Source: a virus. From it: a stretch of DNA of 64,000 nt. The stretch spans positions 1-64,000 of the IMG/VR virus record IMGVR_UViG_3300017963_000203; one strand, written 5' to 3'. The notes beneath the pieces are model-generated. The model searched no databases and was not told the origin of the DNA. It saw only the letters and a program-made list of their open reading frames with translations. This document shows, in pieces, positions 24,398-56,879 of this stretch. A program made the position numbers and the translations under genes. Every line of letters starts with the position of its first letter. The stretch's first letter is position 1.

Positions 24398-24759
24398 GGG
24401 GGCGTAAAGGGTTCGACTGGGTAGTGAAAGGATACCTTGCGTGCCGTGGTTGGTCGGTCACCACGTTAAAAGCCGCCCACACTTTTAAGTGCCAATCCAA
24501 ACACTGGGAGCTTCACCGCTCCCCTCGCAGCGGTCGCTTAGACCCCTGCCCTCAAACCGGCGAGGTTCCGTAGCTGGGGCGAGGCCGTTCACGGGACTGG
24601 ATCGGCAGAGCTGGTCGTCTGCTGGTTGAGAAAAGACCTGGCTTCGTCGGGTGGAAAGAACCCGAATAGGTTGCCGGCTCTCGAAAGAACCGGATACGCG
24701 CGTAGACAGGTACTGGAAACTGCTTCAGGACGTGGGTTCGATTCCCACCGCCTCCACCA
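24398..24759 (+). ncRNA. ssrA: tmRNA
   Basis: 5' GGGGGCG..GGTTCGAC pairs with 3' CGCCTCC-ACCA (G3:U Ala determinant); T-arm GTGGGTTCGATTCCCAC; tag frame 24491-24541 ANPNTGSFTAPLAAVA*. Confidence 0.95.
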
Positions 24760-40388: not shown

Positions 40389-40898
40389 CTATACGATCAC
40401 CGAGATGAACCCCGTTCCTCCGACCCTGTAGCCGTCCCAGAGTTCCGAGGGGACGACTCCCCAGGCGAGATCGCAGTTCTGGTTAATTTTAAGTTCCTTG
40501 ACGAGCTTGTCGAACCCGTTGCCTGCGTCCCCTCCGCGCAATCTGGCGATCGTGGTGTTGTAGAACTGCCACTTGTCGTTGATCATCTTCCGCACGTTTC
40601 CATCCGTCACATCCAGCATGTTCCGCTGCATTCGGATGGACACGGAGGTGAGGGTCCTGGCCGCCGCTTCATCGACGACCAGAAGGGCTTGGGGACCGGT
40701 GAGACTTTCGATGGAGATGTCCAGGCCCGGGCCGCTGGGCTCGATGAGGTTGTACCGATGAACGGCGTCCACGAGCATCTCAGCCAGAAAGGTGTCCGGA
40801 GACTCCTCCGTCTCGATGAGCTCGTTGGCCTCCTTGTAGTCCTGGAGAAAGCGTCGAAGCTTTCCCACGAGGCTCACGGGGACCTTGTATTCCGGCAT
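40389..40898 (-). CDS. head-tail adaptor (putative)
   Basis: LRRFLQDY.EAN.LI, RN.L..TDG pattern; downstream of the capsid gene. Confidence 0.55.
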   Translation of the reverse strand: MPEYKVPVSLVGKLRRFLQDYKEANELIETEESPDTFLAEMLVDAVHRYNLIEPSGPGLDISIESLTGPQALLVVDEAAARTLTSVSIRMQRNMLDVTDGNVRKMINDKWQFYNTTIARLRGGDAGNGFDKLVKELKINQNCDLAWGVVPSELWDGYRVGGTGFISVIV

Positions 40899-41494
40899 CA
40901 GAACATCTCCATCAGATCGTCAGCCGCGCTCTTCTTGGCCGGAGCTTTCTTCTTGGCTGGAGCTTTCTTCCCCACCTTCTTCGGAGGCCTGTTGGCGATT
41001 CTCTTCCGCTTCTTCTCTTTCTTGGAAGCGGCCTTCGGCTTCTCCTCGGACTTCTTGGGGATCTCCACCGTCACGACAGCCTCTTCCGCAGGAACCTCGG
41101 GCTTGTCCGTGACCTTGACTGTGGTGGGCTCCCGGTCCAGAGGCTTCTCCTTGGCCTCCATCTTGGCCGCCATGACCCCGGCCTGGACGATCCTGGGCTC
41201 GGCGCCGGTGTCGTCCAGAGCGTAGCCTGGCGGGACCCTCACGTCGAATCCGGGCACGCGCAAGATCTGCGGATTCACGCCGATGACCTCCTTGGCCACC
41301 GAATCGGGAACCATGGCTCCGATGTTGATGATCAAGCCGTCGGGGCCGACAACCAGGAACCTGTCCCCGTATCGCCGGCGCTCGTCCGGAAGGATGTCGT
41401 CCAGGCGCGTCTTCACGGACGTGCCCGGCTTGAACCTCCGGATTTGGAGGTTCAGCGGCCCTTCCCCGTAATAGGTGATCTGTGCGGTTTTCAC
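40898..41494 (-). CDS. hypothetical protein with Lys-rich C-terminus
   Basis: AAGGAGG RBS before GTG; KKAPAKKKAPAKK. Confidence 0.7.
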   Translation of the reverse strand: MKTAQITYYGEGPLNLQIRRFKPGTSVKTRLDDILPDERRRYGDRFLVVGPDGLIINIGAMVPDSVAKEVIGVNPQILRVPGFDVRVPPGYALDDTGAEPRIVQAGVMAAKMEAKEKPLDREPTTVKVTDKPEVPAEEAVVTVEIPKKSEEKPKAASKKEKKRKRIANRPPKKVGKKAPAKKKAPAKKSAADDLMEMF

Positions 41495-42750
41495 GACGCC
41501 TCCTTTGATCTCCTCGTGAGATGAGCGAATTGAATCGAGCCACTCAGGAGTCCCTTCGCCTTTGGGACATCCGTCGTGCGTTTCTTGCCCGATACAAGTT
41601 TACGCCCGGTCTCGAGACGAAGGAACGGATTCTTTCTGAGGACCGGGCTTTTCTTCACGTTGGGATCCAGAAGCATCTTCGCGCCGGCGGCAAACTTGTC
41701 GAGGTACGATGCCTTCTTCTCCTGGCCCGTTCTTCGACGACCCTGGAGCCACTGCTGGATCTTACGACCGAGCAGCGCGCCCCCAATCGTGCCGCCCAGG
41801 GCGCCAATCCCAGGAGCGATTCCTGACGCTCCGGACATGCCTCGACGTGCGAGCGCGTCACCGACAGCACTCCCGGCAAGGCCGCCACCGATCATCCCTG
41901 CTGGAGCGAGGGCTGCACCCGGAAGACCTCCGACAGCGCCACCGCCACCAGCACCCAGGCCGAGGAGCATCATCAGTTCGATGAGCGTGAAGCCCTTCTT
42001 CTCGAGCTCGTCCTCGAAACCTTGCAGGAAGGCGGTCTTCTTCATCCTTCCGAATCTCCTCACGCGCGTCGTCTTCTCGATCATCACACCGCTGGGCGTG
42101 GGCTTGAATTCGGACTTGAGGGTCTCCCATCCCTCATTTCGAGGGCCCAAAGCGATGTCCTTGTCGCTGAATTTCTGTCCCCTGAAAACCCTGGCCACCT
42201 CCTCCTCAGACCCCTGTTTCTTCATGCGCTCGATGTCCTTCGTGTCCTTCTCGCGCCCCATTCTACGCTTGAAGTCCAGGGTCGTGGGAACGTCCCAGTG
42301 CTTGAGGCCGCGAAGCGTGGTCGTGGGCACGTTGCTGAAGTCACGACCACCGACGTACCACCGACCGGTGAAGACGGTGATCGGGCCGTAGTTGGTCCTG
42401 ATGGTGAGCATGGGGGAGCCGATTGGACTCCGCCCCGGGACTGCGCCGGGAAAGGAGGACATCTTCTTGAACGCTTCCTCCGGTACCTGAACGTCGAGAT
42501 CGTTGATCTCTCGCAGGCCCAAAGCGCCGAGGAGTGCGCTCCCCCCCAGGACCACATCGCTCTTCGGGACGCCGGCATGAGCCAGGATGCGCTCGAGCAT
42601 GGCCGTAAGCTGGATGTACTTCGTCGCCTGGCCCTTCTTCTCCATGCGCCTTCTCCGTCGTCGCTTGGGGATGATCTTCCGGACAGCCTGCATCATGTCC
42701 TGGGCCGTGTCCGGGTCGAACCGTCGCCGATGCTTCGGGTATCGTGGCAT
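41491..42750 (-). CDS. modular virion polyprotein: nucleotidyltransferase domain + pilin-like/glycine-zipper segment
   Basis: GGSALL...REINDLDV and GREKDTKD NTase motifs (42211-42630); AFLQGFEDELEKKG|FTLIELMMLL; modules bounded by Kx[AG]. Confidence 0.75.
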   Translation of the reverse strand: MPRYPKHRRRFDPDTAQDMMQAVRKIIPKRRRRRRMEKKGQATKYIQLTAMLERILAHAGVPKSDVVLGGSALLGALGLREINDLDVQVPEEAFKKMSSFPGAVPGRSPIGSPMLTIRTNYGPITVFTGRWYVGGRDFSNVPTTTLRGLKHWDVPTTLDFKRRMGREKDTKDIERMKKQGSEEEVARVFRGQKFSDKDIALGPRNEGWETLKSEFKPTPSGVMIEKTTRVRRFGRMKKTAFLQGFEDELEKKGFTLIELMMLLGLGAGGGGAVGGLPGAALAPAGMIGGGLAGSAVGDALARRGMSGASGIAPGIGALGGTIGGALLGRKIQQWLQGRRRTGQEKKASYLDKFAAGAKMLLDPNVKKSPVLRKNPFLRLETGRKLVSGKKRTTDVPKAKGLLSGSIQFAHLTRRSKEAS

Positions 42751-42765
42751 GGCCGATCTCCGACG

Positions 42766-42805
42766 AAAAAGCCCCACCCGCCTCAGAGCCGGGCGGATGG
42801 GGCTC
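42766..42805 (-). terminator. terminator after the major capsid gene
   Basis: AGCCCCATCCGCC...GGCGGGTGGGGCT-TTTT on the - strand. Confidence 0.75.
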
Positions 42806-42837: not shown

Positions 42838-44028
42838 TTACACCACGGCCGGCAGCGCCGCCTGGAGGTTGTCGTTGATGATGGTGAAGTTCCCGGCCGA
42901 GGCCGTGACGCCCGCGGGCGTCTGGAACGTCACCGGCAACGTCATCCTGGCTCCCTTGAGCAGGATGGCGCCGAGGGCGCGGATGTTGCCGAAGCCGGCC
43001 CCGACGTCCTCCCAGGCCTCCATCTCGATCCAGCGGCTCCGCTTGTCGATGAAGAACTTGGTGTTCTCCAGGACCATGAAGCGGCCGATGAACTCGGGGG
43101 CCGGGAACACGTAGATGACGCCCGGCTCGACGAGGTCGTCGTTGTCCCGGATCGTGGTCACGAAGGTGTAGCCGCCCACGGTCGTGTACTTGTACCCGTC
43201 GCGGACGATCTCGCTCGTGATCTCGAGGCCGGCCTCCGTCAGCGACCACGCGACGGTGTCGGTCCAGGTGACCTCGTGGAGGAGGAAGGTACGCGCCTTC
43301 TGCTGGCGCGCGGCGGGGATCTTCACGAGGTCCTTCAGGACCACGCGGTTCCAGTCGTCCTCGTCGGAGAGGATGATGTTGGAGTAGATCGCGTCCGCCC
43401 GGTTGAGGTTGGCCGTGGGAATCGGGGCCCACGCGCCGGCGCCCTTGGCCCTCTGGAAGAGGAAGCGCATGAACTCGGCCTGATCGCCGAAGTTCCTCGT
43501 GCCGCCGGCGACGACGCCGCGCTGCACGAGCTTGTTGTAGTTGTACCGGGTGCCCAGGAAAAGCCCCGACTTCACGTGCTGCATGAACGTGAAGTCCTCC
43601 TGCTCCTGGATGTCCTTGGCGATGTTCTGCTCCAGGATCTTGGTGAGGGGCATGCGGTAGGAGCGGAGCTCCTGCTCGGACTTGATGATCTTGTCCGAGG
43701 AGATCGTGTGAAACACGATCTTGTACCGCGGAGCCTGGATGTAGGTCTTCTCCGGCTCGCCGCGCCAGTTGATGTGCATGGCGATGGAATCCGGCTCGAG
43801 GTCGTCGATGTACTCGAGACCTTCGTCCTCGATCCTCCGCTGGCACTCCTTCTCCGTCACGACCTTCGGAGGCAGGATCTTGCGGCAGAAAGCGTTCTCA
43901 CGGAGCTTCTGCTGGATGTACAGGCCGCTGGCCTGTCCGAGCTTCGTGAGCGCCTCGCCGCCGACCTCGAGGGTCTGCCCGAACAGCGTGTTGAACTGCT
44001 CGGCGTTGAACGCGCCCGTATCCGACAT
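42838..44028 (-). CDS. major capsid protein
   Basis: 396 aa, strongest codon bias, AGGAGG RBS, KLRENAFCRKILPP, DIQEQED..F, own terminator; follows protease/scaffold genes. Confidence 0.8.
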   Translation of the reverse strand: MSDTGAFNAEQFNTLFGQTLEVGGEALTKLGQASGLYIQQKLRENAFCRKILPPKVVTEKECQRRIEDEGLEYIDDLEPDSIAMHINWRGEPEKTYIQAPRYKIVFHTISSDKIIKSEQELRSYRMPLTKILEQNIAKDIQEQEDFTFMQHVKSGLFLGTRYNYNKLVQRGVVAGGTRNFGDQAEFMRFLFQRAKGAGAWAPIPTANLNRADAIYSNIILSDEDDWNRVVLKDLVKIPAARQQKARTFLLHEVTWTDTVAWSLTEAGLEITSEIVRDGYKYTTVGGYTFVTTIRDNDDLVEPGVIYVFPAPEFIGRFMVLENTKFFIDKRSRWIEMEAWEDVGAGFGNIRALGAILLKGARMTLPVTFQTPAGVTASAGNFTIINDNLQAALPAVV

Positions 44029-44645: not shown

Positions 44646-45035
44646 CTACCCGATGACACCCCGATCGAGGAGATCGCTGAAGCAATCCGCAATCGGGTTT
44701 TTGCCACCGCTCTTGGGCTGTGACTCGGACACCGGTTCTCCCAGACGGGTCTCGAAACGATCGATCCCCAGTTCGTGTGCCGATTTGGTGACTTGAAACC
44801 TCATGGGATCGGCCATGAACTCCGCGACCTTGTCAGTCGCATCGTTCGGGTCGATCTGGCCTTCGGCGATGAGTTGCAGCACGCCCTTTGTGATCTCCAG
44901 TTCCTGTTGAATGGCTGCCACCTTTTCCATCGCCTCCTGGGCCTTCTCTTCGGCGGTCTTGACCAGGACTTCCTGATTCCTCAGTTTGTCCCGAATCCTC
45001 GCCGCCACCTCCGTATCCAGAACGACTTTGCCCAT
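44646..45035 (-). CDS. scaffolding-like coiled-coil protein
   Basis: VKTA, EKVA, TKSA; helical; head module. Confidence 0.55.
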   Translation of the reverse strand: MGKVVLDTEVAARIRDKLRNQEVLVKTAEEKAQEAMEKVAAIQQELEITKGVLQLIAEGQIDPNDATDKVAEFMADPMRFQVTKSAHELGIDRFETRLGEPVSESQPKSGGKNPIADCFSDLLDRGVIG

Positions 45036-45036
45036 C

Positions 45037-45279
45037 TCACGGTTCCAGTGAGACCAGGGCGTCGAGAGCCGCAAGCCATCCGGCCATTGTCAGGTCCTCA
45101 CGACGCTCCAGGTACGCCTTCTTTTCCAGCCCCCGCTGAACCTCGGAGTTCCCCATGGCGTCCGTCAGCGACCCGATGACCTCGTCGAGATCGGGGTCCG
45201 CCTGTGCTTCCTTCCGGAAGCGCTCCCTGGACCGGGCTTTGATCTGGTCCAGGGCTGACTGAACAGCCGCAACGTCCAA
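45037..45279 (-). CDS. small head-assembly protein
   Basis: TTG start after GGAGG; RKEA, EKKA. Confidence 0.6.
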   Translation of the reverse strand: MDVAAVQSALDQIKARSRERFRKEAQADPDLDEVIGSLTDAMGNSEVQRGLEKKAYLERREDLTMAGWLAALDALVSLEP

Positions 45280-45282
45280 GGG

Positions 45283-45756
45283 TTACTCCTCCTCGGCGGA
45301 TTCCTCGCCGAGCTCGAGCAGGATGTTGGCCGCCAAGCGGCCGAGCTGCTCGGATTCCTCGTCCGAGGCGACCTTCTCCAGGTCCTCCTCGGAGATGCCC
45401 GCCATCTGGAGGGCCTCGCCCGCGAGGGCGCCGAGCTCCGCGAGCTCTTCGGCGGCTTCCTTGGAGAGCTCTTCTTCGCCCTCCTCGACGCCCGCCGTCT
45501 TCTCCTCGCCCCCTTCGGGCTCGGAGTGCGCCGCGATGTGCTCTTCGACCAGTTGGGCCGCGGCCGACAGCATGCCCGAGTCGGACATGGGGGCCACCTC
45601 GCCGTTGGCCTCGGCCACCTTCAGCAGGTCGACAGCCTCGTCGAGGAGCTGCTGGCGGAGCTCGTCGCCTTCGTACGCGGCTTCGATGGCCGCGAGCTTG
45701 ACGTTGAACTCCTGCTGGTCCAGGGCCTGGACGATGTCGCTGAGTCTCGTCTCCAT
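45283..45756 (-). CDS. acidic scaffold/core protein
   Basis: Very acidic; VKLA, LKVA, EKTA, SKEA, EKVA. Confidence 0.65.
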   Translation of the reverse strand: METRLSDIVQALDQQEFNVKLAAIEAAYEGDELRQQLLDEAVDLLKVAEANGEVAPMSDSGMLSAAAQLVEEHIAAHSEPEGGEEKTAGVEEGEEELSKEAAEELAELGALAGEALQMAGISEEDLEKVASDEESEQLGRLAANILLELGEESAEEE

Positions 45757-45850
45757 CTCGTTCTTCCTCCTGGATGTCTTTCGGTCACTCCTCGACTGTT
45801 CGAGGAGAGTCTCACACCGGGCGAACGGAGATCAATCCCGGGAAGGCGAC

Positions 45851-46270
45851 TTAGCCTCCGCGGGTCTCCGCCGGGTTCGGGTTCTTGGACTGCGGGGGAG
45901 CCACCGCGCCGTAGGTCACGTTGGGGTTGGCCCCCTCGATCTTCTTCTCGGTGACCCCGCCGCCCCCGGTCTCGCCGATCGTGGCGCCGGCCGGCCCCGC
46001 GCCGTGGCGCTCCTGGACCTTCTTGGCCACGTTCTTGAAGACCGACTGGTCGTTTTCGGGGTTGGCCTGGGAAGACTCGACGGTGCCGCCTTCGGCCGCC
46101 GTCTTCTTGAGTTCCGCGACGAAGCCCTTGGCGAACATGCGCCCGCCGGCGAAGAGGTCTTCCGCGACCTTCATCATGGGATCGTCGGCCTTGCCGGCGG
46201 AAGCGTTCTTCTCCAGGCTCCCGTCGGTCTCGAGTTCCTCGAGCAGACTGTCGATGTTGATGCCGTTCAT
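45851..46270 (-). CDS. head core protein with tag
   Basis: LEKNA, MKVA, MFAKGFVAELKKTA. Confidence 0.7.
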   Translation of the reverse strand: MNGINIDSLLEELETDGSLEKNASAGKADDPMMKVAEDLFAGGRMFAKGFVAELKKTAAEGGTVESSQANPENDQSVFKNVAKKVQERHGAGPAGATIGETGGGGVTEKKIEGANPNVTYGAVAPPQSKNPNPAETRGG

Positions 46271-46283
46271 GTCGAACGCTCCT

Positions 46284-47819
46284 TCAAACCTTTTTCATCT
46301 TCAACCCGACCAGGAAAGGCGTCACCGGCCGGAACCTGTCACTCGCAGTTTTAATCCCCGCCAAAGCATTTTCAACCGCGTCGGGGTCACGAATCAGCAA
46401 AGTTTTCTCTGCTGCTTTCACCAGGTCTTCGACATCCAGTCGCCCGAGTGCTTCCAGGTACTTGTCGTAGACTTCGCTTGCCCCCTTGTCAAGAGCCGCC
46501 CCCGGCTTTGGTCCTGAGATTCTTATAATCCTGACCACGCGTTTGGCAAATGGCGGATCAAACAAACTCCTGCTCGGGATCAACTCTTTGAACTTCGATA
46601 GGAGTCTGGGGAGTACTGAATCCAAGTCAAGTCGTTCCGGAACTTTCTCCGAGTCTCCCTCTGTGATGATCTCCACTTCGGGTTTCTTGAGAAGGATACC
46701 CGATGCTGTTGCGCCGTTAAAGATTTCCTCCGGAGACATCGTTTGGCGCATCGATTTGAGGGACACGGCCGGAATGCACCTCGACGCGTTGTCATCCTCT
46801 TTCACGAGGTTCGAGAGGATTTTCTGTGCCTTCGGCTTGAGCAGAGTCTTGCCGAGATTGTCCTGGCCAGGTTCGGCTGGGACTTCTTTGCTGATCTCGC
46901 CAAGCTTGAAGATCGTTCTTTTCTTTCGCATGGATTCCTGCGCCGAGGCAACCTTCACGAAGTCGACACTACGAATGGTGTAATCTTCGTGACGTTGGAC
47001 AACCGTGGGGTCGGCTGTTGGAAGATGAACGCCGGCGACTTTTCGAAGGGAATACGCTGGAGCGAATGCTGGCGTGATTACTCTCGAAATATCGAAGAAC
47101 CTCGGGAACCAGTTTTCTGCCGCGACCTTTCTTCCGTCTGGAAGCGTGACGTTCAACAGCGTCCGAAGATGCTCACAGTACTGGTTCCGATTCTTCGCCA
47201 CATTCTTGCAGATGGAGCAAACGTCGAACGCGACCTTGCAACCCATGGACCACGGAATGGGCTCACCACGGTCGATCATGCCCACGAGATCCGGGGCGGA
47301 AAGACCAACGCCGTCCCTTGGTGGATCCTTTCGAATGAAAACGATGAGCTCTCCGCGGCGCATCTTCTCGTTGTATGCCGCGCAAATCACCTTCTCCCCG
47401 ATGGAGAACTTCGGGTCTTTGTTGTTGTGAAGGACGAACGGGTAGGCATAAGTCTCGAAGGTGCTGATACCGTACTCCGGAGGAATCGGACGGCCGGTCT
47501 TTCTGAGGAACGCCTGGATGTCCGGAGGGGGCGGCTCATGAAGGAGAGACCACTCCCAGAAGCTGTCGCCGTTCTTGTTGCTCCCCCATGCCTCGGTAGC
47601 ACCCACGGCGTTGATGTGCACGTATCTACCGTCTTCCCTCGGAGAGAGGGAGGCCGCAGCTTTGATGAGACGCTCCGGAATGTAGACCTCGGACGCTGTC
47701 TTCTCGAAGACGCGCGAATGGATCGGGAGATAGGACGGGCCCCACCTGGCATCGTATGCGGGGGCCACGTGCTTCTCCATCTCCGGAGAGAGGATCAGAT
47801 TTGCTCTCTTGTCGATCAT
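46284..47819 (-). CDS. prohead maturation protease
   Basis: NKNGDSF, His (VLHNNKD), Ser (WSMGC), CSIC..CEH Zn insertion, FFDISRV..PA; upstream of scaffold/capsid genes. Confidence 0.75.
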   Translation of the reverse strand: MIDKRANLILSPEMEKHVAPAYDARWGPSYLPIHSRVFEKTASEVYIPERLIKAAASLSPREDGRYVHINAVGATEAWGSNKNGDSFWEWSLLHEPPPPDIQAFLRKTGRPIPPEYGISTFETYAYPFVLHNNKDPKFSIGEKVICAAYNEKMRRGELIVFIRKDPPRDGVGLSAPDLVGMIDRGEPIPWSMGCKVAFDVCSICKNVAKNRNQYCEHLRTLLNVTLPDGRKVAAENWFPRFFDISRVITPAFAPAYSLRKVAGVHLPTADPTVVQRHEDYTIRSVDFVKVASAQESMRKKRTIFKLGEISKEVPAEPGQDNLGKTLLKPKAQKILSNLVKEDDNASRCIPAVSLKSMRQTMSPEEIFNGATASGILLKKPEVEIITEGDSEKVPERLDLDSVLPRLLSKFKELIPSRSLFDPPFAKRVVRIIRISGPKPGAALDKGASEVYDKYLEALGRLDVEDLVKAAEKTLLIRDPDAVENALAGIKTASDRFRPVTPFLVGLKMKKV

Positions 47820-48787
47820 CCGAACACCGTGGTCACTCGAGGTATAGCCACACTCGCCGTATTGGTCATTCCAGTGAGGGGCGCAGGTTGTGGCGCCGCC
47901 GCCGGGGGTGCAGCGGTCGGCATCTTCAGTCTACCGCGTTCCGCTCGCCGCATGAGAACATTTTGCAGGCGGGGGATGCCAGCCGACTCCTGAAGGATCC
48001 CAGGGAGCCCCTGCATCGCGATGAGCGGGAGCACACCGCCCAAGATCGGGCTGCGAACCCCCAGCCCATACATGATGGGTTCGATAGCGCTCATGGCAGC
48101 CATCTGGAGGAGCATGCTCCCCCAGGGGTTGTTCACGATCTTCGCCCACGGCCCCACCTTCATCCCCTGCTGCTGGGCGACGCCGAGAGGGTCGGCCTCC
48201 ACCGCCTTCTGCTGTCTGAGAATACTCTGGAACTTTTTCTGAGTAATTGGGGCCTGACTCGGTCTTGCTGCCTTGGGCACAGCAGGAGTGCCGGGCTTGG
48301 GAACCTTGAGCCCCGCCTGAAACTTCTTCCACATCGCCTCGCCACCCGGGACAGCCGATCCCGCTGGCTTGGACACGACAGGAGCCTTGGGCGGAGTGGC
48401 GGTCAGCCCCTTCAACCAATCGAGAGCCCCGCCCTCCTTGGATAGAGCATCCGTTCCATCCCCGACGAGGCTCACGTTCGTGTCGCCCCACTGTGGGATC
48501 GCTCTTGTGGAAAGAATTTTGTACTTGGATGCTTTCCGGCGCGTTGGTTTGACGCCGCCACCACGGACCACCTTGTCTCGGAGAGATCGGTCGTTAGCCT
48601 GGGCCTTGAGACCGATGCCGCGTAGGATCTCTTGGCGCTCCTGACGTGCAGGCGAAGGAACCTTGCGACCAGCTCCGGACTCGTACTCCTCTTGCGCGGA
48701 GATCTCGCTGGAGCCCTGAGCCTCGGGCTTGCTGAGCGTTGCGGGCCCGATTCGCCCGCGCCACGTGACCTGCATTCCGTCGCGCAT
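47816..48787 (-). CDS. internal virion protein (putative)
   Basis: SKEG|GALDWLKG site; hydrophobic C-terminal segments; start uncertain. Confidence 0.6.
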   Translation of the reverse strand: MRDGMQVTWRGRIGPATLSKPEAQGSSEISAQEEYESGAGRKVPSPARQERQEILRGIGLKAQANDRSLRDKVVRGGGVKPTRRKASKYKILSTRAIPQWGDTNVSLVGDGTDALSKEGGALDWLKGLTATPPKAPVVSKPAGSAVPGGEAMWKKFQAGLKVPKPGTPAVPKAARPSQAPITQKKFQSILRQQKAVEADPLGVAQQQGMKVGPWAKIVNNPWGSMLLQMAAMSAIEPIMYGLGVRSPILGGVLPLIAMQGLPGILQESAGIPRLQNVLMRRAERGRLKMPTAAPPAAAPQPAPLTGMTNTASVAIPRVTTVFG

Positions 48788-48799
48788 GCGTCTTCCGAT

Positions 48800-49729
48800 C
48801 TACTTGCTGCGGCCCGGGGTTCTTGCTCGCGCACTCCCACCACGCATCTCGATGATGGTCGGCGCGTGAATGGTCGTGCCTTTCTGCCTCGGCCCGAAGT
48901 TCTTCGCCACGTCGAGCATGGTGGTGGCCATTTGGTTGACCTGGCCCTGGGTGGTGCGCTCGATGTTTCCGCTCTGATTCTCGATGTCGAGCAGCTCCTT
49001 GATCATGCCCGGCTGGATGAGATCCGGGCCTGTCTCGTGCCACCGCTTCATGAGATTCCCCGCGAGAATCGGATTCTGGGCCACGTGCGGGGCGAAGGTC
49101 GTGAGAATCTGAAAGTAATGGCCCACGTTGGGGTCGTTCCTCAGCTCGGGATGCTGTCGGAGGATCCTGGTGAGCGAGTTCTTCAGATTGCCTGACTGCG
49201 TGATGGCTTTCACACCGGAGGCGATGACCGGAGCGGCGACGCCGCTGAGGGCCATGGCCGCCATGATCGGCTGCCAGTTCTTTCCCCACCACTGACCGCC
49301 TCGGACGATGCCTCCTGGCTTGCCAGGAGTGCCCTTGCCATGCCACGTGTACTTGGTGCCCCTACCAACTCCTCGACCCACATCCTTCAACGCCTGGAGC
49401 ATCTTGTCTGCGATGCCGGCAGTCTTCTCGATGTGAGGGGACAATTTCTCGAGAGCCGAGAACGCCTCCTTCGTGATGTGCCGGTCGACGGCCGCGCGCT
49501 CGTGGTCTTCTCCACGGAAAGCGATATAGGTGGTGACGCGGCCGATCTTCTCGATGAGATCGTCGGACGCGTAGGCCAGGTGCTGCTCGACGAGGCGCGA
49601 CATGCCCTCACGATCCCCAGCCTGGGCGCATTTCAGCATCCCGGCCACGAACTTGCCGATCTCCGCGCGCTCGTCCTCGTTGAAGTTCCGCTCGTTGTAA
49701 AGCGCAGCGAATTTTTCGAAGATGGACAT
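48800..49729 (-). CDS. internal virion/ejection protein (putative)
   Basis: EKFA, LKCA, EKIG, TKEA, EKTA then amphipathic and TM-like segments. Confidence 0.7.
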   Translation of the reverse strand: MSIFEKFAALYNERNFNEDERAEIGKFVAGMLKCAQAGDREGMSRLVEQHLAYASDDLIEKIGRVTTYIAFRGEDHERAAVDRHITKEAFSALEKLSPHIEKTAGIADKMLQALKDVGRGVGRGTKYTWHGKGTPGKPGGIVRGGQWWGKNWQPIMAAMALSGVAAPVIASGVKAITQSGNLKNSLTRILRQHPELRNDPNVGHYFQILTTFAPHVAQNPILAGNLMKRWHETGPDLIQPGMIKELLDIENQSGNIERTTQGQVNQMATTMLDVAKNFGPRQKGTTIHAPTIIEMRGGSARARTPGRSK

Positions 49730-49738
49730 GGTAAACCT

Positions 49739-50992
49739 CTACATCTGGAAGGGCGGCGCGTAGGCCTGGTTCCCGTAGAACGAGCCAACCGGGGCCTGCG
49801 GCCCTTGGACCTGAGCCTCAGGACTCCACCCTGCCCGGCCCTCACGCCCGAACGCGCGCCCGAAGCCTCGACCCACCGCCTTGAGAATCGAAGGACCGAA
49901 GAGGAGGGCAGCCAGAAGTGGAACCCCACCGCCGACCATGGCCGTACCCTTTCCCATCCTCCAGGCCTTGCCCAGGACACCGGACTGCTTCACGGGCGCC
50001 TTGGTCGCCGCCGCGATCTTTCGGATCTCGACAACCTTGTGGAAGAGGTCCTCGTCCGCCATGCTCGACGCCTTCTTCGCCAGGTTCTCCACCTCCGACA
50101 TCAGGTACTCCTGCGTGTCCAGGTTGTCGGTGAAGGAGTTCGTACCGACTTCGACCGGGTCCGGAGCGTCGTTCAGCATCTGGATCGCTCCTCGAACGGA
50201 GTCGGTCTCGCTGATTTTCTTCCGGAAGGTATCGAGGTCCACCTGGAATGCGTGGCGCCCGTTGATGACCTGCCACTCGCCGTTGGGGATCTCCACGTTC
50301 TGCGCGAGGATCTTCTTGTCCACGGGATGGCCGAGCTTGGTCAGATCGTCCTTGACCGCCTCGAAGACCTTGAGCCAGAGCCGATCGTTCCCTGGGAACG
50401 CGGCGCAGGCGTACTTCATGAGATCCTGAATCTCGCCGCCGTCGAGAAGGACGTGGTTTCGCGCTTCCTCCCGAATCTTGGCGTAGGCCTTGTGCGTGGC
50501 GTCCTCTGATGCCTGCTTCTGGAGGGCCAGCTCACCAACCCTCTTTCGAAGCTCAGAGAGGACGACACCGGCGCTGTGCTCGGCGCGCTTCTCCATGAGC
50601 TCCTCGGCTTCCTTCACGAACGGACGCGCGCTGGCGACCTTCTCGATCCCCTCGAGAACGGTCTGCTTGAAAGCGGACTCGTCCCGCATGGGCTCGAACA
50701 CGGACATGACAGAGGCCGTTTTCACGGTACTGGCCTTGTCGGGATGCAGGATTGCCTGCACGCCGGCCAAGGATGCCAACGGGAAAGTGAACGTCTTGTC
50801 GCCAGCGGTCTTGAACAGACGCTCGTTGGCATCCAGATTCGTGAGCTCCACGACTCTCTGGATCTGGACCGGCGAGAGATTGTTCTTCTCGGCGAGCTTC
50901 GCGATGGTGTCGTTGAGTGGCACGTTCTTCTCTACGAACTGCTCCGAGGCCATCTTGGCGAAGTCGGCGAAACGGATCGGATTGATATCCAT
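49739..50992 (-). CDS. internal head protein
   Basis: KLAEKNNLSPVQIQRVVELTN; many KxA sites; C-terminal TM-like GGGVPLLAALLFGP. Confidence 0.75.
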   Translation of the reverse strand: MDINPIRFADFAKMASEQFVEKNVPLNDTIAKLAEKNNLSPVQIQRVVELTNLDANERLFKTAGDKTFTFPLASLAGVQAILHPDKASTVKTASVMSVFEPMRDESAFKQTVLEGIEKVASARPFVKEAEELMEKRAEHSAGVVLSELRKRVGELALQKQASEDATHKAYAKIREEARNHVLLDGGEIQDLMKYACAAFPGNDRLWLKVFEAVKDDLTKLGHPVDKKILAQNVEIPNGEWQVINGRHAFQVDLDTFRKKISETDSVRGAIQMLNDAPDPVEVGTNSFTDNLDTQEYLMSEVENLAKKASSMADEDLFHKVVEIRKIAAATKAPVKQSGVLGKAWRMGKGTAMVGGGVPLLAALLFGPSILKAVGRGFGRAFGREGRAGWSPEAQVQGPQAPVGSFYGNQAYAPPFQM

Positions 50993-51001
50993 GATCCTCT
51001 C

Positions 51002-51889
51002 CTATCTGATGGATCCCGAAAGCGACGTCTTCCCGATCTGTTTCGAGATCGCGGCCGGCCCCTCTCCCTTCGGGATCGGGCCGATGATCTGCTTTCGGAT
51101 GGCTTTGCTTCTCTTCAGCCGCGTCTGTAGATTGCCGTTTGGAGGGCCCGCCACCCTCTGGTTTGGGGCCATCTGAGGGGTTGGCATCTTGGGTCTCATG
51201 CTCTTCGGGAGAGACGCGCCAACCTTGTCAAGCTCGTCCAGGAAGCCGTCCAAGAAGGCTTCAGCGGCGCTCTTGCGGAAGAACTGGCTCACCCCGGGGA
51301 CTTTGACGCCCTTCGAGATTGCCGACCGACTCCGCGAAAGGGCCCTCTCGGAGAACCCGCCCTTCGGCGCCAGACTACTGGGCAACTTGGTCTTGGCCAT
51401 GACCACCCGTGGAATTCTCTCTCCCTTGGGTCCGGTGGTCTCCGGGTACACCTCTTTCACAGAGACCTTGCCCCCAAGACGATGCGCTCGCTGAGCAGAT
51501 TCACGCTCGACTGGATGCCAACCACCGCTCCTCAACTTCTTCCCCTGCTGCATGAAGCTGGAGAGTCCGCTCTCGGCTTCCTTCTCGATACCGGCGAGAA
51601 ATCCAGCGGTAAACGCCTCCTCCGCCTGCTTGATGGTGGAGTTCTTAGCCCTCGTCATGAAGACGTTCTTGTTGATCTTGGGCTCCTCAGGGCCTTTCAC
51701 GCACTTTCCACTGTCGAAGGTCAGCTTGTTGGGCTCCTTGCTTGGAAGGTCCGGCTTCTCCTTCGAGTCGTGACTCGGCGCTCCCTGAGAGGCGTTGACG
51801 TCGGCTTGAGACGGAAGAACGCCGCCGGCCCCCAGCCGATCCTCTGCCATCTTGGCGAATCTCGCCAGAAGATCCTCGTAGGTGATCAT
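51002..51889 (-). CDS. tagged modular virion protein
   Basis: KQAEEAFTAGFLAGIEKEA and KSAAEAFLDGFLDELDKVG separate basic modules. Confidence 0.75.
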   Translation of the reverse strand: MITYEDLLARFAKMAEDRLGAGGVLPSQADVNASQGAPSHDSKEKPDLPSKEPNKLTFDSGKCVKGPEEPKINKNVFMTRAKNSTIKQAEEAFTAGFLAGIEKEAESGLSSFMQQGKKLRSGGWHPVERESAQRAHRLGGKVSVKEVYPETTGPKGERIPRVVMAKTKLPSSLAPKGGFSERALSRSRSAISKGVKVPGVSQFFRKSAAEAFLDGFLDELDKVGASLPKSMRPKMPTPQMAPNQRVAGPPNGNLQTRLKRSKAIRKQIIGPIPKGEGPAAISKQIGKTSLSGSIR

Positions 51890-51942
51890 GCTCTTCTCCG
51901 TCAAATGTAGTCCTCTAAGGTTTACTCAGGGGACCCATGATT

Positions 51943-53820
51943 TCAAGACCGAACAGCCGGAACGATCGTCCTGGCGTAGTCCCCGTAATACTGCTTGGCT
52001 GCCAGCCAGCAGTACATCGTCGCCTGAAAAGCATCGTCGGGGAGCGTGTGGTCGTAGCGCATGGTCTGATGATAGTCGTCGTACTCGATGAAGATCGAGG
52101 TGAAGTCGTCGATCATGGGCATCTTGGGGCTGGGGTCGTTCTTCATGAGTTCGAAGCAAGGGAACCGGATGCGGGCCTTCTTGATCGTGTCGATCACATC
52201 CCGCATGTTCTGGAACCGGTCGATCAGGTATCGGCCGTACTTGCCCGCCTTGGGATCGAACTTCACAAGGGCGCGCTGCTGCGTGGACTGGAACTCGAGC
52301 AAGACAGGATCCGGTGTGCCCACATCCACCGGTTTCCACCCGTAGTTGTCCACGAGGTGCTCGTTGTTGATGTGGCCGAAACCATAGTCCGATCCGCAGA
52401 AGGCCACCTGGAACTGCCTGGCGAGCTTGTCGAAATGGAAGGGCTGCTGAACCAGGTCCGATTTCTCGCCCAGGTACTTCTCCATGTAATGAATCCGGAA
52501 CTTCTCGTCGGCGCCGAACGTACCGACGACCACCACGGTGAACGCACGTTTCTTCCTCTTCTTCCCCTGCGTGTCCGTAGATCGAAGACCGGTACCGTGG
52601 TCGATGCCCATGAACATCGGCCGCCCTACCCGGCGAAGACCATCTGGACGGTCCCACGACTTCCGCTCCTCCTCGCAGGCATTTCGGATGTCCTGTTCGG
52701 TGAGGACAAGCTCGCCCTCCTCGCTGGGGAGGCCGAGCGCTTCATTCTGGAAAATGGAGAAAGGGACCTCTGGATCGTGGAGTTTGGAGTGAACTCGCTT
52801 GAATGACTGGAAGGGGACCTGGATCTGGCTGATCCTGAAGCCGAAGCTCTCGTCCAGCTTGCTCGGCCGCATGGCCACCCACTCACCGCCGAAATCATTC
52901 GGGTCCCGCGGATTCTTGTGCTTCTTCGGAAAGATTTCCTTCCCGCATCGCGTGCAGATGAAGAAGAAGTCGCCGATGACGTTTTCGTCCAGGTAGTTCC
53001 AGTGAGAGCAGTGGCTGCACTTGACCATCCACTCGAACTGGCTCGTCTGATCGTAGCGCCTGGGCAGCACGTTCATCTTCGACTTTGGCGTCCCCGTATA
53101 GATCCGGAAGAACCGATCTGGTAGGGCGTGTGACTGGGTCTCCTCGATAACGGGAATTTCGTCGGAGATGATGTCCTGAATCTCGTCGATGTTGACCAGA
53201 TCGGCCGAAACACCGCGAGTGGCGTCGGCTGTCAAATAGCAGGATCGAAAGTTCGCATAGGCTCCGTTGTTGAACTCCTTCATCCCCACCTGCCAGATGT
53301 TCATGGTGGAGAGCATCTCAGCAGCAATACGCGGAGAGTCCTCAGCGATCTTCTTGAAACGCTGCTGGCTGAAGACGGAGACCTGGCTGAACCTGGGCTG
53401 GATGAACAGGGCCTTCATGTTGGGCATGGAGGCCATGAGGGCGATGGACTTACAGGCCGCGGTCGTGCTCTTCTCGCACTGCCGAGCCCACATGAGCACC
53501 ATGTTCCGCGAGCCCTCTGGATGCTTGACGCTCAGGTCGTAGATGGGTTTGAGGTAGGAACGATCGTGACGAATGACCGAGCCGTCCATCTGCTTGATGT
53601 GATCGACGTATCGGAACGGCCAGCCCTTCTCGACGTGGATGATTTCCGGAATGAGATCAGAGAGTGTGGTTACATCCCGTGTAGCCTCTTCATCGTAGAG
53701 AGACTCCTGCTCTGCCTCCCCCATGCCGATGATCAGATTTCCATCTTCGTCGACGAAGTTAATCTCTCGAGGATTGACCGTGCCGTCCTCGATAAACCAG
53801 CCGTCGTTATGACCTGCCAT
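51943..53820 (-). CDS. terL: terminase large subunit
   Basis: ARQCEKST Walker A, RG.SAD...IDEIQD, GTPK, CSHC..CTRC, NEALGLP, nuclease GIDHG, DDAFQA. Confidence 0.9.
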   Translation of the reverse strand: MAGHNDGWFIEDGTVNPREINFVDEDGNLIIGMGEAEQESLYDEEATRDVTTLSDLIPEIIHVEKGWPFRYVDHIKQMDGSVIRHDRSYLKPIYDLSVKHPEGSRNMVLMWARQCEKSTTAACKSIALMASMPNMKALFIQPRFSQVSVFSQQRFKKIAEDSPRIAAEMLSTMNIWQVGMKEFNNGAYANFRSCYLTADATRGVSADLVNIDEIQDIISDEIPVIEETQSHALPDRFFRIYTGTPKSKMNVLPRRYDQTSQFEWMVKCSHCSHWNYLDENVIGDFFFICTRCGKEIFPKKHKNPRDPNDFGGEWVAMRPSKLDESFGFRISQIQVPFQSFKRVHSKLHDPEVPFSIFQNEALGLPSEEGELVLTEQDIRNACEEERKSWDRPDGLRRVGRPMFMGIDHGTGLRSTDTQGKKRKKRAFTVVVVGTFGADEKFRIHYMEKYLGEKSDLVQQPFHFDKLARQFQVAFCGSDYGFGHINNEHLVDNYGWKPVDVGTPDPVLLEFQSTQQRALVKFDPKAGKYGRYLIDRFQNMRDVIDTIKKARIRFPCFELMKNDPSPKMPMIDDFTSIFIEYDDYHQTMRYDHTLPDDAFQATMYCWLAAKQYYGDYARTIVPAVRS

Positions 53821-54835
53821 CAGCCAACTGCCCCTGAATCTCCGCGTTGATGGATTTGAACTCCCTGTCGGAAGCGACGATGGAAATGTTCTGGAAGAAC
53901 GAGCCACCTTGGACAGGCTTGTCCACGTCTCCGCGCGTCACACCCACCTTGGTGTAAGAGTTGAGGTGCTGGTGAACGTGCTTGAATCCTTCCCCCTTCA
54001 TAGCCAACGTCGCGAGAATCTTCTTCTCGAGATCGACAGCCACGATGCGCAGCGTCTCCTGGAAGTGAGGCTCCTTCCCTTCGCGAATACGCAGTTCGCC
54101 TGTGGTCATCCCCCTGGCTTTGCTCTTCGCCTTCCTCTCGGTGGGTAGGATGATGCCCAGGTAGTACCGCCAGTCACGCTCGGTCATGGGCGCGATGTCG
54201 TAAAAAACAGACATGTAGAGGTCGAGCGCCACATTCTTCCACTGCTGTCCGGAGAGCTCCTCCATAGCGGCCTGATGGTCGGCCCGGGTCCCTCGCGTGG
54301 TCACAACGCTCTCTATGATGTTCTTGGTTTTGGCGTCACCCAGGAACGAAAAGAAATTATCCATCCACAAGGGGTTCGAATACGGGACGATGACGCCGAT
54401 GACCCGAAGGAGCATCTCATAGGCGCCTTTCTGCTTCGCCGACGGAGCCTTGCGTTTCTTCACCGTGTCCTTGAGTTCCTTCGGGATCCTGGACAGGAAC
54501 CGCTTCTCGAGCTTCTTGTAGTAACCGAGCCCGAACTTGGGGGACGCGAGGTTGCGCTGATGGATCTCGGCCACGGCCTCCTTCTGTGGTGTGGTGAGGA
54601 ACTTGAGGCAGAGGAAACGGTGGAACGGAAGAATGTGGCCGTTCTCGCGCCCGCTCCCCCCGAAACTGTAGATGTGATTCTTGGCGCATCTGAGGATGAA
54701 GTCGTCGCGTGGATCGATCTTGTAGAGGATGCGGCCGTGTTTCGCCTGCGGCTTCGCCTTCAAGAGATCCTGGACCTCATTGAAAGTGGCCGGCGAAATG
54801 CCGTACTTCTCGCAGATTTGGACTCGTGTAATCAT
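53807..54835 (-). CDS. hypothetical DNA-binding protein (terminase small subunit candidate)
   Basis: N-terminal HTH-like TRVQICEKYGISPATF; directly upstream of terL. Confidence 0.5.
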   Translation of the reverse strand: MITRVQICEKYGISPATFNEVQDLLKAKPQAKHGRILYKIDPRDDFILRCAKNHIYSFGGSGRENGHILPFHRFLCLKFLTTPQKEAVAEIHQRNLASPKFGLGYYKKLEKRFLSRIPKELKDTVKKRKAPSAKQKGAYEMLLRVIGVIVPYSNPLWMDNFFSFLGDAKTKNIIESVVTTRGTRADHQAAMEELSGQQWKNVALDLYMSVFYDIAPMTERDWRYYLGIILPTERKAKSKARGMTTGELRIREGKEPHFQETLRIVAVDLEKKILATLAMKGEGFKHVHQHLNSYTKVGVTRGDVDKPVQGGSFFQNISIVASDREFKSINAEIQGQLADGRS

Positions 54836-55335
54836 CGCATGTGAATGACGTACTCTGTCTTATCATAACCAAACAGAGAATTTTCCAAAGCCTTTCGGTT
54901 TGAAGATGGCGTAGATCTGATGTGCTCCAGGTTCGCAAAAAGGTGAGATTCGACCCCATCGTCGAGAATCGAGGCCATGAACAGGCCGCCACCTTTTTTC
55001 TTCACGACGATGATTTCCACCTCCCCGTACATCTCGGCCAGGTCACGCCACAAGTATGCCCAGTCGTCTGAACGACCGCACCCGGAAGCCGCTGTGATCC
55101 ACGGCCGCTGAGAGAACCCGAACCACCGCAACGAGACTTCGTCGCAAGAAAACCCGCGCTGATCCATATCGGAAGACACGAGGCCCCAACGTGGAGCGCG
55201 GGTCCGCAGATACCGGAGGACCCCGAGACCACGGTGCTCAATATCGCTTGAGAGCCACGCCTGAAACGCCGATGGAATCACGCCCCAGGCTGGTCTCACG
55301 TAGCGAAACCAGGCGCTGGTGATCAGACGTATCAA
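54832..55335 (-). CDS. hypothetical protein
   Basis: Coupled at both ends. Confidence 0.55.
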   Translation of the reverse strand: MIRLITSAWFRYVRPAWGVIPSAFQAWLSSDIEHRGLGVLRYLRTRAPRWGLVSSDMDQRGFSCDEVSLRWFGFSQRPWITAASGCGRSDDWAYLWRDLAEMYGEVEIIVVKKKGGGLFMASILDDGVESHLFANLEHIRSTPSSNRKALENSLFGYDKTEYVIHMR

Positions 55336-56879
55336 CCCTCGCTTTCCATGATGGTGTGGCTGTACTGCCGCAGGTCACGTTCCGCGTTGTCCAAGGCGTA
55401 CATGGCCGTCTTCAGGGGCTCCTGGGAGACGGGCAGGCCCAGCCTCGACGCCAGGAGGAGTTTCGCGCACGCCTCCTTCGCCTGACCGAGCTTCTCGATC
55501 TGGTCCACGAACTTGTAGGCATTCTCCTCGGTGATGAAGTTCAACCCGAGCATGGCGTCGACGGTGTTCTTCGCCTCGTCGTCGTCCACGTCCAGGGCGA
55601 TCTTCACGAATTTCTGGCCGTCCACCGTGGAGAGGGGCAGCCACTTGCCGCTCACCGGCTGAACGAAGGCTGCCTCTTTCATGAGGTTGGGGTAGGAGCC
55701 TCGGAACGCCGGTCGCGGCTGTTCCTTCGCGCTGGCGTCTTTCTCCATGGTCACGGGCTCGTAAGAACCGAGCTTCGCCATCTTCGAGCAGGGAACGAAA
55801 GACCAGTCCTGGCTGATGAAGAGACCACCCTGGTCGTCCATGTGGATGTTCTTGATGTTGGGCGAGACGTGAATCTCCCGCGTGCCGTAAATGGAGTCCA
55901 CCGCGATCTTGTCGATGCCGCCCGGCATCGTTGCGCGACCCACCACTTTCACGGGCTCGGTGGCGATGATGCTTCCGTTCTTCTGGAGAACGAAGGCGCC
56001 CCACCCGTTGGGGTCCTTCCCGAAAGAGGCGGTCTTGTCGAGGGCCACCTCTTCACCGAAGATCGGGTCGCTGGCGTAGTAGTACCGATCTCCGCCGAGT
56101 TCGAAGACGCCCATGACGCCGTCTCGCACCTTCCCGTCCAGACCGAAGATGTGATCGGCCACGATGCACGTGGTGTCTTCGTTGCCCATGGCGACCTTGA
56201 AGACGCCGGCCTTCGTGATCTGAGGCTTCCGGATCTTCACCGGGAGCGCCTTGCGCTTGAGCATGTCCGTGGCCTTGGGGCCGGCCACTGCCGACGTCTT
56301 CTCGGCCTCTTTCGACGCACGAGCATTGTCGGCGAAGACCTGGCGGAACGAGGCGTTCTTTCGCATGGCCCACTCGAGCGCTTCCTGAGATCCGAAGGCG
56401 AGCTGGGCTTCCCTCTCGAAAGACTCGAAGGGAAGGTCGATCTTGGCCGCATAGACGTAACGGCCATCGTAGGGCGGCTGCGTCCGGGAGAAGAGGGCCA
56501 TGTCGCTCGCGGCACCCTCCCCGGGCTCCACGGGCTTGCCCAGGGTCGTTCCCTGAACGATCTCCTGGAGCGACGACTTGGTGAGCGGATGGAGCCTTCC
56601 GTTCACCCAGAAAACGTCGAGTGGGGAGAGGCGGAAGTTGTCCACCACGAGAGGGATCGATACCTTGTCATCGAGCTGGATCTGCCCGACGCCGGCACCG
56701 TTCTCCGCGTCCACCCGGTTGAAGTTCACCTGGACCTTGGCGTTGGCGAGCCACGGATAGGACTGGTGGAGGAACTTCACCACCTCCTGCATCCACTCGT
56801 CCGGGTTCTTGCTCAGCTTGACGTTGGCTTCCTTCTCGAAGGTGCCGAGCACTTTCTCCGTGATGAAGAGATTTTCCAT
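55332..56879 (-). CDS. internal virion protein with many KxA sites
   Basis: EKEA, SKEA, DKTA, DKIA, EKDA, MKEA, VKIA; TVDAMLGLNFITEEN. Confidence 0.75.
   Translation of the reverse strand: MENLFITEKVLGTFEKEANVKLSKNPDEWMQEVVKFLHQSYPWLANAKVQVNFNRVDAENGAGVGQIQLDDKVSIPLVVDNFRLSPLDVFWVNGRLHPLTKSSLQEIVQGTTLGKPVEPGEGAASDMALFSRTQPPYDGRYVYAAKIDLPFESFEREAQLAFGSQEALEWAMRKNASFRQVFADNARASKEAEKTSAVAGPKATDMLKRKALPVKIRKPQITKAGVFKVAMGNEDTTCIVADHIFGLDGKVRDGVMGVFELGGDRYYYASDPIFGEEVALDKTASFGKDPNGWGAFVLQKNGSIIATEPVKVVGRATMPGGIDKIAVDSIYGTREIHVSPNIKNIHMDDQGGLFISQDWSFVPCSKMAKLGSYEPVTMEKDASAKEQPRPAFRGSYPNLMKEAAFVQPVSGKWLPLSTVDGQKFVKIALDVDDDEAKNTVDAMLGLNFITEENAYKFVDQIEKLGQAKEACAKLLLASRLGLPVSQEPLKTAMYALDNAERDLRQYSHTIMESEG

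Follow-up and report, generated by a model that had tools for sequence, protein, structure and literature searches.

In bacteriophage T4, variable internal proteins are loaded by means of a 10-residue capsid-targeting sequence, which the protease gp21 then removes, as described in PMC9026906, and in giant phages homologues of gp21 process the ejection proteins, as reported in PMC10052503. A second group of described systems concerns type IV pili. PfsE of the Pf filamentous phage is a small inner-membrane protein that, according to PMC8764522, binds PilC and blocks type IV pili, and genuine virus-encoded pilins exist as well, for example in SNJ2 (as presented in PMC12426801). Here we describe a gene that shows likeness to both groups, located in the first 64,000 nucleotides (hereafter the window) of the IMG/VR virus record IMGVR_UViG_3300017963_000203, which comprises 130,894 bp and has an estimated completeness of 68%. 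The gene encodes P0001, a chain of modules joined by a short tag, in which one junction reads G/FTLIEL. An initial annotation of the window had taken this junction for the cleavage site of a type IV pilin mimic.

Our preferred reading, to which we give a probability of roughly one half, is that P0001 would be a modular head cargo polyprotein, cut by a protease at its module borders, packaged and ejected. We base it on the anatomy of the protein, its conservation, the enrichment of a short motif and two domain folds, all of them observed. Packaging, cleavage, ejection and membrane insertion might then proceed by analogy with T4 and the giant phages. The tag would bring P0001 into the prohead, where a gp21-like protease may separate the modules at borders of the form Phi-x-K-x-[AG], Phi being one of LIVMFYW. 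The pieces could be ejected together with the DNA; the weakly hydrophobic glycine-zipper piece would enter the host membrane and the nucleotidyltransferase would act inside the host cell. The initial annotation had proposed that the pilin-like peptide could serve as a membrane anchor during ejection, a plausible idea that agrees with such a cargo.

Anatomy of the P0001 protein

The gene, its modules and the two features directly upstream are listed here, with protein positions in amino acids (aa):

41491..42750, minus strand: P0001 gene, encoding a modular head-module protein of 419 aa from ATG 42750
42211..42630, minus strand: module 2, minimal (Pol-beta type) nucleotidyltransferase, aa 50-189, with borders after MEKKG and after MKKQG
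42031..42210, minus strand: module 3, conserved, aa 190-249, with the invariant columns EVARVF..GPRNEGW..EKTTR and the end M-K-K-T-A
41992..42030, minus strand: tag copy, aa 250-262, F-L-Q-G-F-E-D-E-L-E-K-K-G, whose last residue is Gly(-1) of the pilin-like motif
41749..41991, minus strand: optional glycine-zipper hydrophobic cassette, aa 263-343, 81 aa with three weakly hydrophobic segments
41968..41991, minus strand: pilin-like block F-T-L-I-E-L-M-M, aa 263-270, a class III signal look-alike
41689..41748, minus strand: basic linker and degenerate second tag, aa 344-363, ending ..KKASYLDKFA (P0007 has a full tag here)
41494..41688, minus strand: very basic C-terminal module, aa 364-428, ..NPFLRLE..LVSG..SGSxQF..KEAS, conserved in alignments
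42770..42790, minus strand: terminator-like hairpin with a T-run between the capsid stop and the P0001 gene (7-pair stem, TTTTCG tail)
42838..44028, minus strand: major capsid protein gene, directly upstream of the P0001 gene (phrog_2522 major head protein, E 6.4e-6)

The listed open reading frame (ORF), 41491..42777 on the minus strand, starts at GTG 42777 and would encode 428 aa; residue numbers follow this longer P0001 numbering throughout. A true length of 419 aa seems most likely, because GTG 42777 falls within the terminator-like hairpin, GGAG is found 7 nt upstream of ATG 42750, and the basic N-terminus from the Met of ATG 42750 onward is common to the relatives. The modules then follow one another in the order basic N-terminus, nucleotidyltransferase, middle domain, tag, glycine-zipper cassette, degenerate tag and basic C-module. 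The succession of a capsid gene and a P0001-type gene recurs in the syntenic relative L006.

The enzyme module is the best defined part of the chain. AlphaFold2 (AF2) gives a confident nucleotidyltransferase fold for aa 50-172, with a predicted local distance difference test (pLDDT) score of about 80-90 over aa 50-165, and this fold matches 2ewr (Z 9.2, 119 residues aligned), MenT1 8an4 (Z 8.3) and ANT(2'') 4xje (Z 8.0). The signature G-[GS] ... D-x-D is present as GGS...DLDV, and the module matches phrog_12854 (E 3.3e-5); Pfam NTP_transf_5 scored 12.9 bits on it, below the cut-off of 31.2. P0004, P0006, P0008 and L006 lack the nucleotidyltransferase altogether. The same module was also found inside giant proteins of 2542 and 3662 aa, as well as in other fusions of 482-909 aa (P0009, P0015, P0017 and P0020 among others). 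We suggest that this MenT/ANT-like fold is that of an effector domain shuffled widely among phages.

The glycine zipper that the initial annotation noticed behind the junction is real: 31% of the 81 cassette residues in P0001 are Gly, and they form 13 GxxxG motifs. The length of the cassette varies, being 66-81 aa in P0001, P0004 and P0007 and 20-25 aa in P0003, P0006 and P0008. In L006 the cassette is absent, the protein has no hydrophobic segment and the first tag joins the second directly, while the gene keeps its position. A weak PHROG tape-measure match lies over the cassette (aa 286-355, E 9.8e-4), and further weak tape-measure and tail-lysin matches extend over aa 199-364 (E about 1e-3 to 4e-3), perhaps for compositional reasons. 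The tail that follows the cassette in P0001 counts 85 residues, of which 22 are K or R, and carries a net charge of +16. More distant relatives at L007 4725-5905 and L008 1082 begin with the tag M-N-L-Y-E-A-F-I-D-E-M-Q-K-T-A, followed by a basic linker and a Gly/Ala-rich hydrophobic segment. They share the layout of a tag and then a glycine zipper, without the pilin-like start.

Portable tag, candidate site and prohead protease

The tag has the form F-h-x-G-[FL]-x-D-E-[LI]-x-K-x-[AG]. Written as a regular expression it gave 15 matches in the record, two of which (50368 and 104885) were rejected by eye, and 7 of the 13 remaining copies stand at the N-terminus of small ORFs. Further copies occur in the related loci L003 and L006-L008. 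As far as can be judged from the sequences, the tag is a portable unit carried by otherwise unrelated head-module proteins. Read by eye, all 13 record copies end in K-x-[AG], and in P0001 the final Gly is also Gly(-1) of the pilin-like junction, so that the junction does coincide with the end of the tag, as the initial annotation had pointed out. Since this Gly is simply the last residue of the tag, which is Ala or Gly in 13 of 13 copies, its presence at position -1 is already explained.

The last five residues of the tag constitute the motif Phi-x-K-x-[AG]. We counted occurrences of [LIVMFYW]-x-K-x-[AG] in 140 crude ORFs and compared them with 200 composition shuffles per ORF. The strongest excess was found in the following ORFs, one of which encodes the prohead protease itself:

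55332-56879: 12 sites observed, 2.2 expected (z 7.6)
49739-50992: 11 sites observed, 1.9 expected (z 6.8)
74801-75916 (record coordinates): 9 sites observed, 1.4 expected (z 6.3)
46284..47819, minus strand: prohead protease P0053, 511 aa, with the fold of T4 gp21 and herpesvirus assemblin; 9 sites observed, 2.1 expected (z 5.3)

A smaller excess is present in ORFs 44646-45074, 45037-45279 and 48800-49729, and two small ORFs elsewhere reach z >=3 from 1-2 sites only. None of the early and replication ORFs of the window (to ~31,000) reaches z 2. Seen along the DNA, the over-representation spans 44646-56879 in the window and 74801-75916 and 119588-122428 in the record, and the residue after the motif is mostly S, A or E (16, 12 and 10 of 75 sites). 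Four other site-rich head-module ORFs also contain marginally hydrophobic Gly/Ala-rich segments.

Within P0001, the motif ends after aa 49, 189, 249, 262 and 363, that is, at all five module borders, and these borders are the places where modules are gained or lost among the relatives. The site after aa 262 is the G/F junction, and it is missing in L006, which has no cassette. We regard Phi-x-K-x-[AG] as a candidate novel specificity of a prohead protease with the gp21/assemblin fold.

That P0053 has this fold emerges from its predicted structure (AF2 pLDDT 73). Its N-terminal domain aligns with T4 gp21 (5jbl) at Z 9.4 and a root mean square deviation of 2.7 over 131 residues, and with the varicella-zoster virus protease (1vzv) at Z 9.2, against Z <=5.9 for unrelated rows; many rows named 'Prohead protease' in BFVD match it too. 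Neither phmmer nor a sequence profile found a meaningful match for P0053 among the PDB sequences, and the fold search alone succeeded. Relatives of the protease are numerous (306 at E<=1e-5, some with at least 78% identity), imply some ten genomes closely related to the record, and lie on contigs of up to 190-217 kb. In several of them, 855-887 aa in length, intein or homing-endonuclease domains (PF14528, PF05203, PF14890) are inserted in the protease, and other relatives carry PF18823.

Pilin-like junction and competing explanations

On the minus strand the Gly codon occupies 41994-41992 and the Phe codon 41991-41989, which places the G/F boundary at 41992/41991, within the peptide ...AFLQGFEDELEKKG/FTLIELMMLLGLGAGGGG... 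of ORF 41491..42777 (minus strand). The initial annotation had located this boundary, an internal ATG at 42045 and a GAGGAG 10 nt upstream of it, all of them correctly. It had also proposed the conservation of FTLIE among homologs as a check, and we found G-[FL]-T-[LI]-[IP]-E kept in 6 of 6 junction-bearing proteins: G/F-T-L-I-E in P0001, P0003 and P0007, G/F-T-I-I-E in P0004, G/L-T-I-I-E in P0006 and G/F-T-L-P-E in P0008. Thus G(-1), T(+2) and E(+5) of the class III motif do not vary, and F(+1) stands in 5 of the 6 proteins. This alignment shows a real motif on which selection acts. Because the six sequences have a common origin, their conservation points to selection on the block, not to a function as pilin.

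The models of the prepilin signal were applied with their curated cut-offs, 16.3 bits for TIGR02532 of NCBIfam and 21.2 bits for Pfam N_methyl. The initial annotation had named the N_methyl hidden Markov model as a check as well, and here P0001 falls short twice, with 14.2 bits (E 0.032) for N_methyl and 14.6 bits for TIGR02532. P0008 does not pass TIGR02532 either (15.2 bits), and P0003 and P0006 give no match to it at E<=1. A six-frame scan of the 130,894-bp record turned up no N_methyl candidate other than the motif of P0001 (E 0.0018), and no Peptidase_A24 (prepilin peptidase) was found in the record, of which 68% is estimated to be present.

As a control we scanned IMG/VR for DNA encoding K-G-F-T-L-I-E-L, which occurs in at least 119 loci (L009-L127). 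Among the 121 matches listed, 117 could be evaluated. In 110 of these 117 the hydrophobicity measure KD19 is 2.19-3.25 (median 2.69) and the proteins are genuine prepilins; the other 7 have KD19 values of 0.19-1.92. Still among the matches listed, a start codon lies <=16 residues upstream in 107 of the 110 prepilins, whose first 25 residues contain a median of 1 and a maximum of 4 Gly. The P0001 family has another profile. Its motif begins ~253 residues from the likely start in P0001 and 92-270 residues across the family, so that it does not follow an N-terminal leader. KD19 after the Gly is 1.43 in P0001 and 1.17-1.86 across the family, lower than expected of a pilin alpha1-N helix, and the first 25 residues after the junction contain 4-9 Gly. 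The net charge is +1 to +4 over the 20 residues before Gly(-1). Behind the cassette it reaches +15 to +23 for the tails of the five full-length relatives, and the truncated P0008 has +6 there. With a pilin-like N-in/C-out insertion, this strongly basic tail would need to be exported. No family match to a pilin domain was obtained in the tail with Pfam or TIGR02532, the AF2 pLDDT there being 25-36.

In position, hydrophobicity, Gly content and flank charge the P0001 family thus lies outside the 110 control prepilins among the matches listed, it gives no match to a pilin domain, and the syntenic L006 does without the cassette; the pilin mimicry put forward by the initial annotation finds no support in these comparisons. 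To judge from its sequence, P0001 is not a prepilin, and it is probably not a PilD substrate. The pilin look of G/F-T-L-I-E-L is a resemblance confined to the first turn of the cassette; its Gly belongs to the tag, and the remainder is the conserved start of a hydrophobic helix.

The control also revealed that prepilin genes of the ordinary N-terminal type, which may belong to the viruses or to host flanks, are frequent on the viral contigs of IMG/VR, with at least 119 loci for one exact 8-residue motif, and that some contigs (L024, L082) carry tandem double prepilin copies.

Several points weigh against P0001 as a cleaved and packaged cargo. The gp21-type proteases of known specificity that are covered in PMC10052503 and PMC9026906 have their cleavage sites behind Glu and not behind Ala or Gly, which leaves a K-x-[AG] site without precedent among them. 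The number of sites in P0001 is not significant alone (5 against 2.4 expected, z 1.7), and the ORF set used for the enrichment was crude, consisting of the longest ORFs filtered by GC content at third codon positions and including some antisense ORFs. The C-terminal half of P0001, modelled within the whole protein, has a pLDDT of 25-36 and its model is unusable. Concerning the junction, P0004 (19.4 bits, 22 of 24 model positions) and P0007 (17.9 bits) do pass TIGR02532, and an invariant Thr(+2) together with an invariant Glu(+5) in a hydrophobic start is not explained by 'just a helix'. Finally, the databases searched yielded only 6 junction-bearing sequences.

Another explanation, which we consider unlikely, is that the conserved T-[LI]-x-E could itself be a gp21-type site with a hydrophobic P3, cut after E267 and perhaps also after the D-E of the tag. 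A cut after E267 would remove the pilin-like end instead of creating it. The fold of P0053 is closest to T4 gp21, and the proteases of T4, phiKZ and SPN3US all cut after Glu according to PMC9026906 and PMC10052503; the former quotes 'LIE-9' as fitting the T4 logo, and the latter gives A-X-E as the sequence after which SPN3US gp245 cuts. The pattern [LI]-x-E fits 6 of 6 relatives, including the L-P-E of P0008, which is a poor fit to a pilin helix, and the N-terminal tags measure ~11 residues up to D-E, near the 10 residues of the T4 targeting sequence. However, x-x-E is too common for an informative enrichment test, and the motif that is enriched is Phi-x-K-x-[AG]. Moreover, P3 of the tag D-E varies widely (L, F, V, Y, E, S, A, T, G), and a fold does not reveal specificity.

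We find it slightly harder to accept that the cassette acts in the producing cell as a membrane tether that can be cleaved. It would keep P0001, or the nascent prohead, at the inner membrane until cuts at the flanking sites free the soluble modules; as a variant, it would be a signal-arrest-release (SAR)-like or lysis-related membrane segment. The cassette does lie between the candidate sites at aa 262 and 363, and weakly hydrophobic segments rich in Gly and Ala are characteristic of anchors that can be released. For SPN3US and T4, PMC10052503 discusses how proteolysis may free proheads from the inner membrane. Yet KD19 values of 1.2-1.9 are marginal for insertion, and as both flanks of the cassette are basic no topology would meet the positive-inside rule. 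L006 keeps the gene without the cassette, and no lysis genes are adjacent.

A genuine pilin mimic, in which PilD or the phage protease makes an F-T-L-I-E piece that inserts into the inner membrane as a mature pilin does and jams or exploits the type IV pilus or the type II secretion system, for instance in superinfection exclusion, appears improbable. Its appeal is in the invariant positions of the junction, in the two relatives that pass TIGR02532 and in the candidate protease site that coincides with the junction; an optional cassette would also suit an accessory, host-specific role, and there are precedents for phage action on pili in PfsE, which binds PilC (as described in PMC8764522), and for a virus with working pilins (as presented in PMC12426801). 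These points are countered by the internal position of the motif, 92-270 residues from the N-terminus, by hydrophobicity and Gly content beyond those of all 110 control prepilins among the matches listed, and by a strongly basic C-tail that would have to cross the membrane and gives no match to a pilin domain. The record (68% complete) offers neither a prepilin peptidase nor another N_methyl match, P0008 has Pro at +4 and P0006 Leu at +1, and the Gly is accounted for by the tag. More doubtful again is a form of this idea that needs no PilD: the phage protease would cut after K-K-G and leave in the capsid a peptide of ~100 residues beginning with F-T-L-I-E-L, in effect the first turn of a mature pilin set on a glycine-zipper helix, which, once ejected into the envelope, might dock into the platform of the type IV pilus or type II secretion system and either block pili and rival phages or provide an entry route. 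If it were true, this would be the first virion-delivered pilin mimic.

The initial annotation had further proposed that a stand-alone prepilin-like protein with an 18-residue leader could be translated from an internal start:

42043..42045, minus strand: internal ATG, Met245, in the Phi position of the aa-249 site, preceded by GAGGAG at 42061-42056 with a 10-nt spacer

We consider such a product very improbable. In its favour, the GAGGAG of the window has a counterpart in L003, AGGAG at the same spacing, the codon of Met245 is ATG (window, L003) or TTG (L004/L005, L006) and never CTG in 4 distinct sequences, TTG accounts for only 7-15% of the Leu codons, and the product would resemble the many small proteins that are tagged at the N-terminus. 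The codon pattern is weak evidence, because a single step from ATG to Leu allows only TTG or CTG. A Shine-Dalgarno-like sequence precedes the codon only where Arg-Arg is encoded by AGG AGA, and L004/L005 and L006 have none there; L006 keeps TTG despite its absent cassette. The residue itself is Leu in 3 of the 6 junction-bearing proteins; as Met or Leu it occupies the Phi position of a site, M/L-K-K-x-A, that all 6 relatives and L006 retain. None of the 50 matches among 1.84 billion representatives starts at the Met245 position, and P0038, a stand-alone tag with a C-terminal module, has no cassette. The codon of Met245 is probably not a start, and the stand-alone prepilin is not supported. Two simpler ideas were rejected: a chance motif without constraint, since the motif is kept in 6 of 6 relatives, and a captured fragment of a pilin gene, as the likeness of P0001 to pilins ends after only ~8 residues and the composition beyond is unlike that of pilins.

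Genomic setting and known systems

Relatives of P0001 were found in metagenomes. A word-indexed search returned 4 proteins, and a profile search of 1.84 billion representatives returned 50 proteins at E<=1e-3, of which 41 match the N-terminal domain only and 9, the window's own protein included, cover the C-terminal half. Six metagenome loci provided additional relatives. No close relatives of P0001 turned up in the phage GenBank set, in IMG/VR or in 185,579 species genomes, and the family is known only from these metagenome proteins and six metagenome loci. A protein atlas queried with P0001 gave best feature scores of 0.81-0.84, under the lead threshold of 0.9, and its structure rows all had TM <0.4; the best features were phage hypothetical proteins, including one cluster with Gly-zipper_YMGG on 53% of its members.

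The record belongs to a large phage with a structural operon on the minus strand, and its large-phage genes encode a single-chain beta/beta' RNA polymerase, a sigma factor, a NAD ligase, a transfer-messenger RNA (tmRNA) and the large terminase. At the stop of the P0001 gene begins the next gene (40898-41494, minus strand), which encodes a Lys/Ala/Pro-rich protein of 198 aa with a histone-like basic tail at its end and without a family match. The tmRNA lies at 24398-24759 (plus strand) and encodes, according to ARAGORN, the tag peptide ANPNTGSFTAPLAAVA, which could help to identify the host.

The literature searched contained no report of a class III signal look-alike within a virion, head or ejection protein of a tailed phage. 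The virus-encoded pilins considered here, those of SNJ2 and, putatively, the IMG/VR control prepilins among the matches listed, are ordinary N-terminal prepilins. A caution for annotation arises here, in that a curated cut-off gives P0004 and P0007 the name 'prepilin-type cleavage/methylation domain protein' although nothing else in them is pilin-like. In our opinion the conserved motif is a curiosity that can mislead annotation, and the more interesting biology is the cargo system of tag and Phi-x-K-x-[AG] site. If P0001 is indeed a head cargo polyprotein, one clade of large phages, equipped with a single-chain RNA polymerase, a tmRNA and a gp21-like protease, would build its cargo from swappable modules joined by a tag-and-site unit, and a single chain would deliver both an enzyme and a membrane-active peptide. 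Phi-x-K-x-[AG] would then be a new specificity of the gp21/assemblin fold, and the mature virion proteome of these uncultured phages would become predictable.

The system most like the one proposed here is that of the T4 internal proteins (IPI-III, Alt) and of the ejection proteins of phiKZ and SPN3US, in which a short portable peptide is likewise found on unrelated, fast-evolving head proteins. As in T4 and the giant phages, a protease with the gp21/assemblin fold is encoded nearby, and candidate sites mark the module borders. The cargo includes an enzyme in both cases, a nucleotidyltransferase here and an ADP-ribosyltransferase (Alt) in T4. Unlike in those phages, tag copies are found at internal positions too, two of them in a single protein, Phi-x-K-x-[AG] takes the place of x-x-Glu as candidate site, and several modules, among them a hydrophobic cassette, would form one cargo chain. 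With tape-measure and ejection (pilot) proteins P0001 shares repeated GxxxG, marginal hydrophobicity and a location in the structural module, whereas its gene adjoins the capsid gene and not the tail module, and the hydrophobic segment is placed between the tag and candidate sites. Likeness to type IV pilins and pseudopilins is seen in K-G/F-T-L-I-E-L, with its Gly(-1), Phe(+1) and Glu(+5), and in the hydrophobic stretch behind it; in contrast to pilins, P0001 has an internal motif, a Gly-rich and weakly hydrophobic helix, a basic C-tail and a dispensable cassette, and no recognizable pilin globular domain. PfsE, the functional model for a virion-delivered pilin mimic, resembles P0001 in that a phage would direct a small, hydrophobic product at the machinery of the pilus, but differs in being the product of a stand-alone prophage gene made in the lysogen. 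To our knowledge PfsE has no pilin-like motif and is not packaged in virions, whereas the P0001 family combines a conserved pilin-like junction with a tag that might direct it into the phage head.

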